A stretch of DNA of 48,435 bases from Escherichia phage EcoIv28_Lewi. The notes beneath the pieces were generated by a model. The model did not search any database and was not told the DNA's origin. It was given only the letters and a program-made list of their open reading frames with translations. Below are positions 1,699 through 20,947 of this stretch, piece by piece. The stretch's first letter is position 1; every line of letters begins with the position of its first letter. The position numbers were made by a program, and so were the translations under genes. Location: the sequence record OX461087, one strand, 5' to 3'.

Positions 1699-1905
1699 AT
1701 GCCAAGACCACGACGCGAGCCGATGGACATTATCACCAGCATTGTGGAGAAGCGGCAGCCGCTGACACTCCGTGATGTTCGCTACTTTGCCCGTTGCTAT
1801 GTGGCACTGGCTGATATGCCTAAAGATGATATGTATGATTTGATTCGGGCCAATTTTAATGTTGATGAAAATAATCGGGTGACGATGAAGGGGGATGAGA
1901 AATGA
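1699..1905 (+). CDS. hypothetical protein (68 aa)
   Basis: Track ORF 1663..1905 trimmed to ATG preceded by AAAGGAG RBS. Confidence 0.5.
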   Translation: MPRPRREPMDIITSIVEKRQPLTLRDVRYFARCYVALADMPKDDMYDLIRANFNVDENNRVTMKGDEK

Positions 1906-2414
1906 GGCATAGGAGAGATGAGCCGAGCAGGGAGTTTATATTGAGTTACCTTGACTACAATCCACTAACTGGGGAATTTAAATGGCTAAAGACAAGGAAT
2001 AGGATTGCAGAAAAAGGGAGTGTGGCTGGCTACTTAAAGCCAGATGGATATGTGCAAATAATTCTTTGCGGTAGGGCTTTTCTTGCTCACAGATTGGCAT
2101 GGATATGCATTCATGGTGCACCAGCAAGTGAAATGATTGACCACATCAATGGCATTCGCAATGACAACAGGGCATGCAATTTAAGGGAGGCCAGCAAATT
2201 TGAGAATAGCCATAACAAAGCAATGAACAAAAACAACACTAGCGGTATCAAGGGGGTTAACTGGAGTTCATCACACAACAAGTGGCATGCAAGAGTTGGA
2301 GTAAATGGCAAAAGATTCACAGTTGGTTACTTTTCCGACATAAGAGAAGCGGAAGCAAAAATAAAAGAATTCAGGAGAATGCATCACAATGAGTTCACAA
2401 ATCACGGGCGATAA
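1902..2414 (+). CDS. HNH homing endonuclease with C-terminal AP2 domain
   Basis: Motif DHINGIRNDNRACNLRE (HNH) followed by an AP2-like segment (GIKGVNW...WHARV...GYF...EAE); ATGA overlap with upstream gene. Confidence 0.8.
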   Translation: MRHRRDEPSREFILSYLDYNPLTGEFKWLKTRNRIAEKGSVAGYLKPDGYVQIILCGRAFLAHRLAWICIHGAPASEMIDHINGIRNDNRACNLREASKFENSHNKAMNKNNTSGIKGVNWSSSHNKWHARVGVNGKRFTVGYFSDIREAEAKIKEFRRMHHNEFTNHGR

Positions 2415-3219: not shown

Positions 3220-3351
3220 GTCATCAAAACCATCTGCATGGTGTGAGCAAATGGAGCGCAATGCGAAAGATGGTGATGAGGCGTATGCTTATTTTCAGCT
3301 GAAGCAGATGTGGAAGCAGCGAGAAAGTTCTGAGCAGGCCAGTTAAACATA

Positions 3352-9500: not shown

Positions 9501-10010
9501 TCAACCTCCACTAATCATGTGTGATAGTCTCTCGCGTCCGGATATTGCAGCAATCTCCGCCTCTTCAATCGTCTTGTAGTAACCAAGTGAGTGTTGCTTC
9601 TTGTTAAAGAAAATTGTTGCGCGATACAGCCCTGACGGCCTATGTAGTGAGACTCCTTTAATTCCTGTGTGATTATTCTTGTATGGTCCTCGCGTTTTTG
9701 CATGATTAATTTTGCAATCAGTCATTTTCCTGCACCCGGCTGGCGTTATAGATAAATCACTCCATTTAGCACTAAATGGGTTTTGTGAAATAGAATAAAC
9801 ACTCTGTCCTTCAGGCGGAAATTCTCCAGTCATATAAAGCCACGCCAGTCGTCTTGCGGTGTATTGTTTTCCCAGGATTGTTATTAAGTAACAATACTTA
9901 GTTATGCTCCCAGCTAATTTCCCGACTCTGCCACCACGCAACCAGATGAAATCACCAGACTCAGGATAATACCTTAACCATGCCTTTAATTCTTTCTGGG
10001 TAAGCATCAC
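9501..10010 (-). CDS. degenerate HNH-AP2 homing-endonuclease paralog
   Basis: N-terminus and AP2-like C-terminus match the other HNH genes, but the DHING..DNR..NLR motif is absent. Confidence 0.6.
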   Translation of the reverse strand: MMLTQKELKAWLRYYPESGDFIWLRGGRVGKLAGSITKYCYLITILGKQYTARRLAWLYMTGEFPPEGQSVYSISQNPFSAKWSDLSITPAGCRKMTDCKINHAKTRGPYKNNHTGIKGVSLHRPSGLYRATIFFNKKQHSLGYYKTIEEAEIAAISGRERLSHMISGG

Positions 10011-11536: not shown

Positions 11537-12955
11537 CCTGCGACGGATTAGCATTCCGCTACCGCGTTGAACGATGTGGTCTCCAAGTCCATAGCGTAAA
11601 CTATCAATCGCGTGATTGTATTTATCAACTATGTCAGGGAGTATGTTGCCTGTTAACTTATCAACCTTATAGCTATACATTGTCATCTCTTCAATGACGT
11701 GTTTACATCTTGAGTGTACGTAAATCCTGTCGCACCCACGAAGCCACGTAATCCCGTCCTCAATGCTCCCAGGCCATTTTGCGCACGGATGAATATCGAA
11801 TCCAGATCGGCGTATATGGCTTATTGTTTCAGGCCTTGCGCAATCCCCATACCATCTGTACTTCTCTGAATTTGGGAATGCTGAGCGCATCGCTTCTGGC
11901 GTGTCAGTTATCTCAAGGCCAACCTTTGCAAAGTCACGATAGATATATAGATTTCTGCGCCCATCTCCCAAATCTTCTACATATGATTCTGTTGCTGCGG
12001 TTGCATCCTGAGAAAAACCAAAGTCAATGCCATAATATGGACCTCCCCATTCTGGAGATGGCTCGAAGTCCAGCGTTTGCCATTTTCCGCCAAGCACGGC
12101 CTCTTCGGAACGCTTGTTGAATAACCCTTCATACACCCACAGATAGCGATCATAATCCACCGCCTTCATCTGGTTCATGTGCTGTTTAAGTTCTTCCGTG
12201 AACCACGGGTTGTGGACGTAGTTAACATTAACAACAACGATGTCATCATCCTGATATATGCCATCAACCATCTTGTCGATGTAAGGCTCAACAAAGTTAG
12301 TCCACGTTGGGTCCGTCTCTTTATTAGGGTTAAAAACAATGATAATTTCAGAGCCAGCCGCACGGACTGTTGGGATAAGCGTATCCCATGACACCTGACT
12401 GATGTTTTCGGATTCTTCACAGAAGACATCCGTAAGGCCAGCCATGCCCTTGATTGCGGTTATGTTTCGCCAAAGGCCACGAAAAACAAACTTTGATCTC
12501 GTTGTGTGGTGTGTTATCTCGCCATCCACGCAACGATATTCCTGAGTGTGCCCCTTCCTGTTTATCTCATCGACCAGCTCGGCATAGCTTGATTCTTTGA
12601 TTGAGTTCTGTATCTCACGGAAGCATCCGACGCGGCTGTTGCGGAATCTTGCCTTTTCTATCAGGTAAGACACGACGTTAGCCGTCTTTCCGCTTCCCCT
12701 ACCACCATAGAACACTTTGAAGCGACGAGGGTAAAGCAATAGCTCCATCCGCTTTGGTATCAGAATTGTTGGCTCTTCGTTTGTTTCCGAGACACCTGTT
12801 GCTGTCATTTTCAGGCGCTTTATAACATTAGGCGTTCCATCAGCAAGAAGTTTATCAACAATGCCAAACACAGCAGACTCAGGCTTTGCAGTTGAGTTGC
12901 CAACTACCTGTTCAAGTTTTTCGATTGCCACACTTGAGAGTCTTTTTCTAGCCAT
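11531..12955 (-). CDS. terminase large subunit
   Basis: 474 aa; Walker A-like GGRGSGKT; ATPase plus nuclease architecture. Confidence 0.9.
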   Translation of the reverse strand: MARKRLSSVAIEKLEQVVGNSTAKPESAVFGIVDKLLADGTPNVIKRLKMTATGVSETNEEPTILIPKRMELLLYPRRFKVFYGGRGSGKTANVVSYLIEKARFRNSRVGCFREIQNSIKESSYAELVDEINRKGHTQEYRCVDGEITHHTTRSKFVFRGLWRNITAIKGMAGLTDVFCEESENISQVSWDTLIPTVRAAGSEIIIVFNPNKETDPTWTNFVEPYIDKMVDGIYQDDDIVVVNVNYVHNPWFTEELKQHMNQMKAVDYDRYLWVYEGLFNKRSEEAVLGGKWQTLDFEPSPEWGGPYYGIDFGFSQDATAATESYVEDLGDGRRNLYIYRDFAKVGLEITDTPEAMRSAFPNSEKYRWYGDCARPETISHIRRSGFDIHPCAKWPGSIEDGITWLRGCDRIYVHSRCKHVIEEMTMYSYKVDKLTGNILPDIVDKYNHAIDSLRYGLGDHIVQRGSGMLIRRRR

Positions 12956-13463
12956 GATTACAAAACTCCCCGTGATTTTTCTCTCTTTCTTCCATTATCT
13001 TTTTGACTGCATCTTCAATGTTGGCGAACCGGCCAAGGTTAACCATCCTGCCATTTATATTTAATCTTGCCATCCACTTGCATCTTGATTTATCCCAATA
13101 CACACCCTTAACCCCTGATGTGTTGTTTGCCTGTAGCTTTTTGTTGTAACCATTTTGCTGATGGTCAGCCTCTCGCAGATTAACAAAACGATTATCAAGC
13201 GTATTGTTGTTTATGTGGTCTATTTCTTTTTCAGGCCAACTACCAGTCATGTAAAGCCAAGCCAGCCTGTGCGATCTATACCACTTTCTTCCAAAATGAA
13301 TATAGTGATACGGTCGCTTGCTACCAACGGAGCCGCATAATTTTATTGTTCCTGCCGGCTTCCCGGGTTTAGCCCTTCCCTGCTTGTGTGGGTTTTTCCA
13401 TGTAAAAATTCCGGTTTCAGGATTGTAATCAAGGATGTGTTTTAATTCTGCTTGCGTAAGCAT
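12948..13463 (-). CDS. HNH-AP2 homing endonuclease between terS and terL
   Basis: Motif EIDHINNNTLDNRFVNLRE plus AP2-like C-terminus; stop overlaps terL start (ATGGCTAG). Confidence 0.8.
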   Translation of the reverse strand: MLTQAELKHILDYNPETGIFTWKNPHKQGRAKPGKPAGTIKLCGSVGSKRPYHYIHFGRKWYRSHRLAWLYMTGSWPEKEIDHINNNTLDNRFVNLREADHQQNGYNKKLQANNTSGVKGVYWDKSRCKWMARLNINGRMVNLGRFANIEDAVKKIMEEREKNHGEFCNHG

Positions 13464-13562
13464 ATATAGATTCCTCATCAGGGCATCATTGAAGTGAATG
13501 CGGCAGGCGGTGATGAGTCGCTTTTCGGGTGCCCCCTAGCCGCATTGATTATTATAAATCAG

Positions 13563-16043: not shown

Positions 16044-16186
16044 TTGCTGAGTCCATACGCTGAGATTAAAGCCTGCATTGCTGCGTTCCAGAATGCTTCT
16101 GCAGGAATGCTGTTGTTTGTGCGGTCAACTGCAATGCGCGCCATAGCTTGTGCATCTTCCAATTCTTCACGGTCTTTGATTTTCAT
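16040..16186 (-). CDS. small hypothetical protein (~48 aa)
   Basis: ATG...TGA ORF with ATGA overlap to downstream gene; below track cutoff. Confidence 0.35.
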   Translation of the reverse strand: MKIKDREELEDAQAMARIAVDRTNNSIPAEAFWNAAMQALISAYGLSK

Positions 16187-16341
16187 TATGCGTACCTGTT
16201 ATATGAAAGTTTTTTACATGCGTAATATTGTTTTTCTGCATATGCAAAGGTCTTTCCAGTTTTCATCATCGCATCAATGAATTTGTGCGCGTCACCCTTT
16301 GCCTCGCAATACAGAGCTATTGCATATTTGGTAGGTTTCAT
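16186..16341 (-). CDS. small hypothetical protein (~51 aa), first gene of minus-strand small-gene operon
   Basis: ATG preceded by GAGGGTGAAGAG RBS, just downstream of a consensus promoter. Confidence 0.35.
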   Translation of the reverse strand: MKPTKYAIALYCEAKGDAHKFIDAMMKTGKTFAYAEKQYYACKKLSYNRYA

Positions 16342-16371
16342 CTCTTCACCCTCGGTTGTTCCGATGAACTC

Positions 16372-16400
16372 AATCTACATCAGTTGCGATTCTACGTCAA
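16372..16400 (-). promoter_or_regulatory. sigma70-like promoter TTGACG-N17-TAGATT
   Basis: Minus-strand -35 TTGACG (16400..16395) and -10 TAGATT (16377..16372), 17-nt spacer, ~30 nt upstream of first ORF. Confidence 0.5.
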
Positions 16401-16419
16401 CAGGAATGCGTTAAAAACG

Positions 16420-16740
16420 TGCTCGTGGGGTAAATTTTTGCCCGTGGGGCAGGTCGTGGGGCAGGTTGGTTGCCCCACGTTTTTCATCGTAAATCATTGA
16501 TTTGAATGTTTTTATTTTTCGTGGGTAAAAAGGGGCAGATTTCATACCCATCCCCTTATAAATATATTCAAATAATCCATTTGTTAATATTATGTTAATT
16601 ACTATCTATAATATGAATAATAATATTACCCATTAACCCAAATAATAATAATTTTATTATATTACATATACTTAGATGAAGTTTTCGTGGGGCAGGTTGG
16701 TTGCCCCACGTTAACCCAATTTACCCCTTTTGCAGATTTT
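16420..16740. repeat. iteron-like repeats, paired 25-bp palindromes and AT-rich spacer (putative replication origin)
   Basis: CGTGGGG(C/T)A repeated at least 5 times; identical CGTGGGGCAGGTTGGTTGCCCCACG at 16455..16479 and 16686..16710; ~180 bp of very AT-rich DNA between. Confidence 0.4.
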
Positions 16741-16747
16741 AGTTGTG

Positions 16748-16776
16748 TTGCAATGCTGGGGAGTAGGTGGTAGTAT
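16748..16776 (+). promoter_or_regulatory. sigma70-like promoter TTGCAA-N17-TAGTAT
   Basis: Read directly from sequence upstream of the plus-strand replication block. Confidence 0.45.
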
Positions 16777-16806
16777 TTTGGGGAAATACTTGATTGAGGA
16801 GCGGAA

Positions 16807-17079
16807 ATGAGCAATCACGGTGTATTATTAAAGCGCAAATTAAACAAACATGGTCGTGGTGCTGGGTGGGTTGCATCATCAAAGTCAACCACTGGGTACT
16901 ACGGTGTTGATTACCACAAGGCATCAAAAAAATTCAGAGCGAGAGTGATGGTACTCAAGAAGAGATATGAGCTTGGCATGTTTGAAACGGCAGAGGAAGC
17001 AAACGCTGCAGTTTTGAGAGCCAAGGAATGGTTATCAGAAAATCCTCATGAGAAATTTGAAACAGAGTACGAGGTTTAA
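16807..17079 (+). CDS. stand-alone AP2-domain DNA-binding protein
   Basis: GYYGV...FRARV...LGMFETAEEANAA pattern like the AP2 tail of the HNH genes, with no nuclease part. Confidence 0.6.
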   Translation: MSNHGVLLKRKLNKHGRGAGWVASSKSTTGYYGVDYHKASKKFRARVMVLKKRYELGMFETAEEANAAVLRAKEWLSENPHEKFETEYEV

Positions 17080-18633
17080 ATGATTACAGCTCAAGATATA
17101 TTCAACGAAGCAAGGGAGTTAAAAGTATCTCCGGCTCGCGTTGCCTTCCATCATGGCATGATACCAAGCTCAAATATGTGGCTTGACATCAAGGAAGGCA
17201 AGGAGCGTGATGTAACGTACTCAGAAACAGAACTCACCAGTGAGCACCGGACTGATTTGCTGTCTCGTTATGCAATCGCTGCAGCTCGTGCCGTTCAGTT
17301 CCCAATAAATACATCGTTCATGCATTTACTTGGGTGCGTTGCCAGCGCAATGACGAGAAACTTTAGCGTTGAGTATTACCATTCAGAACTTCCAGTTTCT
17401 CTTTACGTGGTTACTTCTCAGCCTCCATCAGCAGGGAAAACCGCCATCAACTCAATGCACATGAATCCGGTGAAGATTGAATATGACAACCTTTCCAAAA
17501 AGATGGAAAAGCAGATCATAAAAATAAATCTTCGCATTGAAGAGTTGATGAAGGCATACAAAGAGGCAAGCAACCAAAATGCAAAGGCACTAATCGGCGA
17601 TGATATTGCTCGCGAAAAAGAGAAGTTGGAGGAGCTTTATACAATTACATATCCACTGACGGACGCAACGCCGGAGGCTGTTCAGCATCAAGCCATTCAT
17701 GAAGGTGGATTTTTTAATCTGATAAGTGACGAGGCAAGCGTTCTTAACACATGTCTTGGCCTCTCTTACGGAAAGGAAGGTGGAAAGGCAAACGCAGAAG
17801 TCATCCTGAAGGGATGGGATGGAGGATTCATTGGTTCTGCTCGTGTTGGTCGTGGCGTTTCATCTGGTTACGTGCTTGGAAATATAAGTGTGATTGCTCA
17901 GGATGAAAGTATTGATGCCATTCTTGCCGCTGGCGACAGGGGTAACGGTCTTTCTGAACGTTTCCTGATGTTGCGAGAGCAATCAATGCTTGGCTATCGC
18001 GAACACTGGGACATGGTTAATGACTGCCCTGTAAGCAAGCCAATGCCAGACAGCTTGAGGTCGGAATATGCAAGATTTATACATAATGTTGTGTCAGCAG
18101 AAAAAACAAAACTGACGCTTCACAATGACTCAGCAAGAATGATCGGCCTGTTACGAAATCAGTGGGAGAAAAACTTCCTTCCCGGTGGTAAGTGGGACCA
18201 CGTTCTTCTTCGTGGCGCGATGGGTAAAGCTGATAAGCAAATAATCCGTCTGGCAGCAATATTTCACGCTGCTGAAAACTGGTGCGATGGAGGAAGGCGT
18301 TCAAAGATTATCGGTGAAAATGAAATTAGTCGCGCCATCAGTGTTTATGATGCACTGACAAAAACGTTCACTGATGCTGTTGAATCAAATGGATATGCTG
18401 GTGAGCGTTCTGAATTTGATGTTGTTGCAGAAAAGCTACGCTCTGCCGCTCAGAAAGGGAAAAATAGCGTAACGGTGAAGTGGCTTTATGATTCACTTAA
18501 AAACGTACGACCATTCAAAGGGATACCTAAAATTTACGACCGACTCAGGTCAAGTGTATTACCATCTCTGGAGGAGGATGGTTACTGCGTATTTATCGGA
18601 AATACTGTTCACATAAATCCGAGGTTGAAATGA
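17080..18633 (+). CDS. P-loop NTPase, putative replication protein
   Basis: 517 aa, Walker A-like PPSAGKT; first large gene of the replication block. Confidence 0.5.
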   Translation: MITAQDIFNEARELKVSPARVAFHHGMIPSSNMWLDIKEGKERDVTYSETELTSEHRTDLLSRYAIAAARAVQFPINTSFMHLLGCVASAMTRNFSVEYYHSELPVSLYVVTSQPPSAGKTAINSMHMNPVKIEYDNLSKKMEKQIIKINLRIEELMKAYKEASNQNAKALIGDDIAREKEKLEELYTITYPLTDATPEAVQHQAIHEGGFFNLISDEASVLNTCLGLSYGKEGGKANAEVILKGWDGGFIGSARVGRGVSSGYVLGNISVIAQDESIDAILAAGDRGNGLSERFLMLREQSMLGYREHWDMVNDCPVSKPMPDSLRSEYARFIHNVVSAEKTKLTLHNDSARMIGLLRNQWEKNFLPGGKWDHVLLRGAMGKADKQIIRLAAIFHAAENWCDGGRRSKIIGENEISRAISVYDALTKTFTDAVESNGYAGERSEFDVVAEKLRSAAQKGKNSVTVKWLYDSLKNVRPFKGIPKIYDRLRSSVLPSLEEDGYCVFIGNTVHINPRLK

Positions 18634-20299: not shown

Positions 20300-20947
20300 A
20301 TGAAACAATTAATCGTTACAATAGAGGGTAAGAAATGGCTATCACCATCAAGAAGTGCGAGGTTTGCGGAAATGAGTTTATCGGAACTGCAAAAGCAAAA
20401 TGTTGCTCAGGAAAGTGCAGGGTTAAAAAATGCAGGAACCAAAAGAAAGTCACACATTTCACAGGAGAGGTTAAGGGAGGTTCTTGATTACAACCCTGAT
20501 ACTGGTTATTTCACTTGGATTGTCAGGCTTGGAGCAAGGACTCAGATAGGTGGAAAGCCAGGTACTGTTGATGCTGGTGGTTACCTTAAAATAGCGGTTG
20601 ACGGAAAGGCTTTTATGGCGCATCGCCTTGCTTGGATTTACTTTTATGGAGGAGATATATCAAATTCAGAAATTGACCATATTAACGGCAACAGGATGGA
20701 TAACAGGATATCTAACCTTAGGTTAGCTAACAGAAGTGAAAACAATTGGAACCAAAAGATAAAAAATAGCAACAACTCAGGGGTCAAGGGTGTTAGTTGG
20801 GATAAGGGAGCCAAAAAATGGAGAGCTCAATGTATGGTTAATGGAGTGAAGTATTTCATTGGGAGATTCAATAATATTTCAGATGCAGAGCAGGCTGTGG
20901 TTTCTTTTTGTAGAAAATTCCATGGTAAATTCGTAAACAACGGGTGA
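20300..20947 (+). CDS. HNH-AP2 homing endonuclease (start uncertain; possible frameshift with upstream zinc ribbon)
   Basis: Motif EIDHINGNRMDNRISNLR plus AP2-like C-terminus; conserved LDYNPDTG begins ~57 codons into the track ORF. Confidence 0.65.
   Translation: MKQLIVTIEGKKWLSPSRSARFAEMSLSELQKQNVAQESAGLKNAGTKRKSHISQERLREVLDYNPDTGYFTWIVRLGARTQIGGKPGTVDAGGYLKIAVDGKAFMAHRLAWIYFYGGDISNSEIDHINGNRMDNRISNLRLANRSENNWNQKIKNSNNSGVKGVSWDKGAKKWRAQCMVNGVKYFIGRFNNISDAEQAVVSFCRKFHGKFVNNG
20335..20487 (+). CDS. small zinc-ribbon ORF (~50 aa) out of frame with the downstream HNH domain
   Basis: ATG after GAGGG RBS; CEVCGN...CCSGKC pattern; ends where the conserved HNH N-terminus begins in another frame. 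Confidence 0.35.
   Translation: MAITIKKCEVCGNEFIGTAKAKCCSGKCRVKKCRNQKKVTHFTGEVKGGS

Follow-up and report, generated by a model that had tools for sequence, protein, structure and literature searches.

What does a small AP2-domain protein with no nuclease domain do beside the replicative helicase of a virulent phage, and where does such a protein come from? The gene in question lies in the genome sequence of Escherichia phage EcoIv28_Lewi (record OX461087), and the whole stretch analyzed, 48,435 nucleotides in length, is referred to here as the window. An initial annotation of the window, made from its sequence, had suggested that the gene could be a domesticated DNA-binding module of a homing endonuclease, acting as an origin-binding or regulatory protein.

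Genomic setting

The host phage is a virulent siphophage of approximately 48 kb, from the Skatevirus/Macdonaldcampvirus/Akiravirus cluster, and the DNA around the AP2 gene is 94–97% identical to that of the Salmonella phages IME207, Vi II-E1, and Akira, and the Shigella phage DS8. The genes are directed leftward to the left of about position 16341 and rightward from 16807, where the AP2 gene is followed by the gene of a DUF3987 helicase and those of DUF551 and DUF3850 proteins, and then by a leftward primase and RadD-like helicase (Table 1). The bounds of the reading frame are exactly those of the initial annotation, which had also placed the gene first after an origin-like region; it is indeed the first rightward gene beyond a divergent intergenic region of 465 nt, and a promoter is predicted ahead of it. 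The TAA of the AP2 gene abuts the ATG, at 17080, of the helicase gene (517 amino acids), and this synteny is retained in distant Klebsiella phages. The open reading frame is a genuine gene. A PDB sequence search recovered no solved relative of the helicase, and an NCBIfam search was also empty.

Table 1. Features of the window that are discussed in the text, in order of position.
Feature	Position	Strand	Details
HNH_3 + AP2 paralog	1902–2414	+	Domain search
AP2 paralog, degenerate HNH region	9501–10010	-	169 aa; AP2 Pfam E = 3.7e-6
HNH_3 + AP2 paralog	12948–13478	-	Domain search
Predicted leftward promoter, TTGACG-17-TAGATT	16372–16400	-	Divergent early operon; outward-facing
Left iteron cluster	16424–16481	.	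CGTGGGGTA (16424), CGTGGGGCA (16443), left palindrome 16454–16481
AT-rich core	16500–16680	.	18–26% GC; conserved promoter-like hexamers
Promoter-like TTAATA-17-TATAAT	16584–16612	+	Inside the AT-rich core
Right 28-bp palindrome, TCGTGGGGCAGGTTGGTTGCCCCACGTT	16685–16712	.	Followed by degenerate inverted half-sites, 16713–16728
Predicted sigma-70 promoter, AP2-helicase operon	16748–16776	+	-35 TTGCAA 16748–16753; 17-nt spacer; -10 TAGTAT 16771–16776
Direct heptamers TGGGGAG (16757–16763) and TGGGGAA (16779–16785)	16757–16785	+	Putative operators of the AP2 protein
Shine-Dalgarno sequence GAGGAG	16796–16801	+	5 nt before the ATG of the AP2 gene
Stand-alone AP2-domain gene	16807–17079	+	90 aa, pI 9.65, no Cys
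Layout of the AP2 protein			Basic N-terminal arm, residues 1–28; AP2 core, about 29–77; acidic tail, 78–90
Dyad-like stretch GGTCGTGGTGCTGGGTGGGTTGC	16852–16874	+	Inside the AP2 gene; encodes GRGAGWVA
DUF3987 (SF6/MCM-like) replicative helicase	17080–18633	+	Shine-Dalgarno sequence GAGG within the last AP2 codons
HNH_3 + AP2 paralog	20300–20947	+	Domain search

Identity and fold of the protein

The AP2 pattern, reported in the initial annotation together with the lack of a nuclease, is borne out by the profile matches, the predicted structure, and its comparison with known folds. The Pfam AP2 family (PF00847) matches the 90-amino-acid protein at E = 6.7e-4 (20.4 bits, under the gathering score of 33.3), and a profile built from seven orthologs leads to AP2 proteins rather than to an unrelated family, reaching WRI1, an AP2 factor in the PDB, at E = 0.0023. 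The protein has a PHROG family of its own (phrog_35306; full-length profile match, E = 1.1e-56), and it is also matched by the C-terminal parts of PHROG families labeled “HNH endonuclease”, down to E = 1.7e-13. An exhaustive search of 1.84 billion representatives with the seven-ortholog profile returned 5341 matches, and among those listed, eight of the nine checked from outside the family were AP2-domain proteins, with seven of the nine over the Pfam gathering score. At the level of sequence, this provides strong transitive support for the membership of the protein in the AP2 family. The Pfam search found no nuclease domain, that is, no HNH_3 match, in the 90 amino acids.

The AF2 model, with a pLDDT of about 80 across the domain (residues 31–80), contains three strands (34–37, 42–49, and 52–59) and a helix (62–78), which reproduce the three-stranded antiparallel sheet and C-terminal helix of the Pfam AP2 architecture. 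In Foldseek, the AP2 domains of WRI1 and TEM1 rank highest (probability 0.99–1.0, rmsd 1.7 Å over 47 columns). The AP2 signature residues of strand 1 (G33-V34), of strand 2 (F43-R-A45-R-V47), and of strand 3 with the helix (L56-G-M-F59-E-T61-A-E-E-A65) are all present, line up with those of the paralogs and of WRI1, and vary little or not at all from one ortholog to another. As modeled, then, the protein has an AP2 fold without a nuclease motif. The plant and apicomplexan AP2/ERF factors (WRI1, TEM1, and AtERF1) have the same fold, share an LGxFxTAEEAAxAY-like helix with the phage protein, and provide its best PDB matches in both sequence and structure, whereas the phage protein is a single minimal domain, in which the DNA-contacting sheet residues are YYGVDYH and FRARV, where these factors have YRGVRQR and WAAEI.

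Descent from a homing endonuclease

Residues 2–72 of the protein pair without gaps with residues 85–155 of the HNH_3-AP2 endonuclease of Felix O1 (BLASTP), in an alignment that begins in SNNHISNL, the final element of the HNH motif, beyond the catalytic D-H. In the HNH_3-AP2-AP2 proteins, in turn, profile positions 8–15 map to the final residues matched by Pfam HNH_3. Given this collinear, ungapped alignment from the end of the HNH motif, the protein equates to an HNH_3-AP2 endonuclease reduced to its C-terminal half, with the break within the catalytic motif. Judged by these alignments, which agree with the homing-endonuclease module without a nuclease of the initial annotation, the gene descends from that of an HNH_3-AP2 homing endonuclease by truncation at the 5′ end, with loss of the catalytic His/Asn core. 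The end of the HNH motif has been retained as the basic N-terminal arm, and the AP2 domain is complete and is followed by an invariant acidic C-terminal tail.

The existence of HNH paralogs, on which the initial annotation had drawn, is evident in the window, where four other open reading frames have AP2 domains, three of them in combination with HNH_3 (Table 1), and the C-terminal H..F motif is common to the 90-amino-acid protein and these paralogs. The AP2 domain, the linker, and the H..F motif are homologous to those of the free-standing HNH_3-AP2 (HNN-AP2 or IPA-HNH-like) endonucleases, such as ORF95 of Felix O1 and the paralogs in the window, and the gene resembles those of the endonucleases in its location at a mosaic junction beside a replication gene. 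It differs from them in lacking the N-terminal 80–120 residues, including the catalytic D/H-N core, and the protein therefore cannot cleave DNA. It also differs in its additions, an invariant acidic tail and a (predicted) promoter of its own.

The fourth paralog (9501–10010, minus strand) has no HNH_3 match, and in the alignment its catalytic IDHI..N..NL core is replaced by VYSISQNPFSAKWSDL. This is the closest paralog of the stand-alone AP2 gene (41% over 49 amino acids), and it encodes a second AP2 protein in the genome, full-length but probably nuclease-dead.

Purifying selection and the question of decay

A truncated gene of this type may be a remnant of a homing endonuclease, in decay and with no function of its own, like the truncated HNN-AP2 genes of the Xanthomonas phages. 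Remnants with the AP2 domain only are documented elsewhere (PMC2248197; ICP1 gp115/116, PMC10448857), the gene is dispensable in related phages, and the public record of Vi II-E1 (NC_010495, 3241–3542) calls the ortholog a pseudogene. In this last case, however, an undisrupted frame of 90 amino acids, with 97.8% identity, runs from the ATG at 3270, so the label is wrong. In pairs with measurable dS (Nei-Gojobori), the AP2 gene has an omega of 0.03–0.14, with dS of up to about 2 and many synonymous changes, which is similar to the omega of the adjacent helicase (0.025–0.036). The frame is intact and of fixed length in 17 loci, across two allele types, and the gene has its own Shine-Dalgarno sequence and (predicted) promoter. 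Among orthologs with 62–97% identity, both extensions are invariant, namely MSNHGxLLKxK at the N-terminus and WLSENPHExFxTEYEV in the acidic tail. The AP2 gene is maintained by purifying selection, and is not decaying, which is the sense in which the module can be called domesticated, as first proposed; an explanation based on decay is highly improbable. The Xp10 p53-type remnants and ICP1 gp116 have the same domain content, with the HNH part lost (PMC10448857, PMC2248197), but have been read as decay products, whereas the AP2 gene described here is under purifying selection and has a complete AP2 domain.

The intergenic control region

The divergent intergenic region (16342–16806) is roughly two-fold symmetric. 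The left palindrome is perfect and is identical to the right one over all 28 bp. In these 465 nt, TGGGG/CCCCA occurs eight times, in comparison with 0.39 occurrences expected, and six of the eight CGTGGGG sites of the window are found here. The minimum of the cumulative GC skew and the switch in the direction of transcription also coincide with this region, for which “origin-like” is a fair label, making it a candidate origin. The AT-rich core could be a DNA-unwinding element, the core of a promoter, or both. The papers that describe KlebP_265 and the BASEL phages do not mention this locus.

One possible role for the AP2 protein is the binding of the TGGGG dyads and iterons of this origin-like region, with the acidic tail delivering the co-translated DUF3987 helicase. 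The iterons are phased on both sides of a core with 18% GC, at the GC-skew minimum, and their TGGGG core resembles the heptamers found in the promoter of the AP2 gene, which itself abuts the helicase gene. AP2 domains prefer G-rich sites (PMC10448857), and the acidic tail is invariant. The arms of each dyad are 16 bp apart from center to center, however, and therefore lie on opposite faces of the helix, which is atypical for a small dimer. Further evidence against the binding of the origin comes from related phages, as described in the following section.

The dyads were also considered as terminators or 5′ RNA hairpins. A T-run on the plus strand is present at the left copy only, and the pairing of the arms is broken in several relatives (GGGGAA / TGCCCC). 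Because the copies are repeated directly, the loops in the two divergent transcripts would differ, contrary to an RNA hairpin, and a half-site at the level of the DNA fits better than either a terminator or a hairpin. The Rfam search of the region (E ≤ 1) recovered only a spurious snoRNA match of 19.7 bits, where the gathering score is 47.

A third dyad-like stretch, GGTCGTGGTGCTGGGTGGGTTGC, lies within the AP2 gene. Its local alignment with the 28-bp palindrome scores 14, whereas the highest null score in 345 segments is 13, and none of 500 shuffles reached this score. The resemblance is above chance, yet the segment varies synonymously among the relatives and is missing from the AP2-B allele described below, and it was rejected as a functional third dyad. 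Judged by its sequence, the stretch is probably left over from recombination at a dyad.

A slot for alternative cassettes upstream of the helicase

Of the IMG/VR loci encoding a helicase with 85–99% amino acid identity, 29 were fetched, and 27 include the start of the helicase gene. The gene directly upstream was read in these 27 loci (L009–L035), of which 24 have a complete upstream region. Four unrelated types of small gene occupy the slot, which is equivalent to 16713–17079 of the window: AP2-A (90 amino acids) in 11 loci, AP2-B (82–85 amino acids) in six, and the alternatives alt1 (72–78 amino acids) in eight and alt2 (63–70 amino acids) in two. An unrelated small gene replaces the AP2 gene in 10 of the 27 loci, although the helicase is 86–99% identical. 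Phages in GenBank follow this pattern as well; Bas78, C1, and STGO-35-1, for example, have alt1 and a helicase with approximately 95% DNA identity. Every cassette has its own sigma-70-like promoter and a 3′ end located exactly at the start codon of the helicase. In the case of KlebP_265 and ZX4, the dN is 0.001 in the helicase and 0.30 in the AP2 allele, and this combination of near-identical helicases with different AP2 alleles indicates that the slot recombines. The AP2 gene is one of at least four interchangeable cassettes, each made up of a promoter and a small gene, and is therefore an accessory gene and not a core component of the replication machinery. Judged by gene content, it is dispensable for the phage group as a whole.

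The control region is constant across these exchanges. All 24 complete loci have exactly two TGGGG-N10-11-CCCCA dyads and 6–10 copies of TGGGG, whatever the cassette, so the array of iterons and dyads does not need the AP2 protein in order to function. The GGGGCA and GGGGAA variants of the dyad are distributed without regard to the type of cassette, and the flanks of the dyads follow the helicase clade, with CGTGGGG in Escherichia/Salmonella and (T/C)TGGGG in Klebsiella. Co-variation of the right dyad with the type of AP2 gene had been seen in six genomes, and is broken by two alt1 loci with GGGGCA (L019 and L024) and by an AP2-A locus with GGGGAA (L033). The DUF3987 proteins are SF6/MCM-like replicative helicases that bring a C-terminal winged-helix domain of their own (PMC4889955). 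The persistence of the dyads where the gene is missing, and the lack of any co-variation between the dyads and the cassette, count against the origin-binding role put forward in the initial annotation, which is quite improbable. The TGGGG dyad and AT-rich module of the Skatevirus-like phages is independent of the AP2 gene, which makes the winged-helix domain of the helicase, or another conserved factor, the likely candidate for the reader of the iterons.

The nature of the alternative cassettes bears on the meaning of the slot. Neither alt1 nor alt2 has a family in Pfam or PHROG (both are ORFans), and the AF2 model of alt1, an alpha/beta fold with a pLDDT of 80.5, had no informative match in the PDB. 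A “regulator slot” of swappable DNA-binding proteins was rejected for this reason: as the alternative cassettes have no recognizable DNA-binding fold, the slot is not demonstrably one for regulators, and its occupants may differ in function.

On the other side of the control region, the first leftward gene (16186–16341, minus strand; 51 amino acids) is replaced by an unrelated gene in the Bas78-type relatives, in which the homology picks up exactly at the start codon of this gene. As this gene is also replaced, the conserved control region has variable small genes on both sides.

Promoters and G-run heptamers

The predicted promoter of the AP2-helicase operon was read by eye and scores 8/12, under the threshold of the scan tool. 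It has an extended -10 element, with TG at 16768–16769 (-15/-14), and its position is conserved in the AP2-A relatives. The -35 element of the predicted leftward promoter is conserved in the Klebsiella phages. The strong promoter-like site within the AT-rich core is conserved even in Klebsiella phages with helicase DNA that is only 77% identical, and could be an early promoter that reads through the right dyad, or part of the unwinding element.

The two direct heptamers of the AP2 promoter are 22 bp apart, one in the spacer and the other at the predicted start of transcription, near 16783. Of the eight T[GA]GGGA[AG] sites in the window, only those at 16757 and 16779 lie close together as a pair. 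This pair is kept at fixed positions around the -10 element in three diverged lineages of AP2-A, while the surrounding bases vary. In the AP2-B promoters, the spacer contains two G-runs at a distance of 11 bp, and the AP2-B protein differs in the sheet residues Y32R, K41G, K42Y, and L50N; the alt1 and alt2 promoters have no G-runs. The location of the heptamer pair in the promoter of the AP2 gene itself suggests autoregulation, perhaps of a Cro-like kind. The pair was spotted post hoc, in only about five semi-independent lineages, and its conservation could reflect the architecture of the promoter or linkage within the cassette, given that the motifs are physically tied to the gene.

Possible functions of the AP2 protein

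Our preferred reading, which we hold tentatively, as possible rather than probable, is that the AP2 protein is an early accessory protein, which binds DNA sequence-specifically and regulates the AP2-helicase operon to which its own gene belongs; from the data at hand we infer its binding of DNA, its target sites, and the regulatory outcome. The gene would be the promoter-proximal member of a rightward early/replication operon, with its own extended -10 promoter and the helicase gene next in line. The AP2 sheet would read G-run motifs, and the protein would sit on both TGGGGA(G/A) heptamers, to either side of the -10 element and the transcription start of its own promoter, with the operon being down-regulated once the protein has accumulated. 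It may possibly also touch the neighboring TGGGG(C/A)A iterons. AP2 domains are reported to favor G/C-rich sites, and the DNA-binding domains of homing endonucleases have been co-opted repeatedly as repressors, CapR being one example (PMC10448857). The CasPRs, which are also repressors of homing-endonuclease ancestry, need their AP2 domain (CasPR preprint). A protein–protein role would also fit, given that the acidic tail is invariant and the gene is tightly coupled with that of the helicase.

The CasPRs also bring in a second possibility, that of an accessory gene of early takeover or anti-defense, whose product would be directed at the DNA of the host or of a competitor, silencing or shielding genes of host defense or of other host functions, or the cleavage sites of competing homing endonucleases. 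Phage proteins that contain an AP2 domain silence cas genes by binding their coding sequence (CasPR preprint), and a hypervariable slot with four unrelated small open reading frames is typical of accessory early genes. The absence of any regulator signature in alt1 and alt2, both ORFans, points in the same direction, as does the location of the gene at a boundary of genetic exchange, like those of homing endonucleases (PMC10448857). The likeness to the CasPRs (CapR + AP2) lies in the phage-encoded, nuclease-free DNA-binding domain of a homing endonuclease, and the CasPRs act by site-specific DNA binding. They are encoded by prophages of the Bacillota, however, whereas the AP2 gene is that of a virulent enterobacterial phage; the 90-amino-acid protein is far shorter, with only 28 residues on the N-terminal side of the AP2 domain, and its gene is not in an acr locus. 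It has no CapR zinc finger, and zero cysteines, and is not a CasPR for this reason. The type of cassette is also uncorrelated with the host genus. A host- or competitor-directed effector seems somewhat unlikely. It is unlikely, too, that a homing-endonuclease module has been domesticated in virulent enterobacterial siphophages as a stand-alone, G-run-reading repressor, forming one allele of a four-way slot coupled to the helicase and acting either by autoregulation of the operon or by CasPR-like silencing of host or competitor genes.

If the DNA-binding role is borne out, the AP2 gene would represent a minimal transition from endonuclease to regulator in the virulent phages of Gram-negative bacteria. 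This route is thought to be the source of the plant AP2/ERF factors, and also gave rise to CapR and the CasPRs.

Related entries in public databases

The AP2-only family and its annotation are already known. The ortholog in Salmonella phage Akira is annotated as “hypothetical protein; AP2 domain, DNA binding domain”, and this protein (gp01; PHROG 35306) has 98.9% identity and the same position, with no substantive difference from the protein described here. In addition to the intact “pseudogene” of Vi II-E1, a second public annotation is corrected by the present analysis. PHROGs 33760 and 24751 are labeled “HNH endonuclease” and match the AP2 part only; with profiles of 58 and 65 positions, respectively, they are too short to contain an HNH domain, and the label is therefore mistaken. 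Stand-alone AP2 proteins are probably more common in phages than the annotations imply. In BUCT610, the annotated open reading frame is an alternative frame of 124 amino acids, instead of the AP2-B frame.
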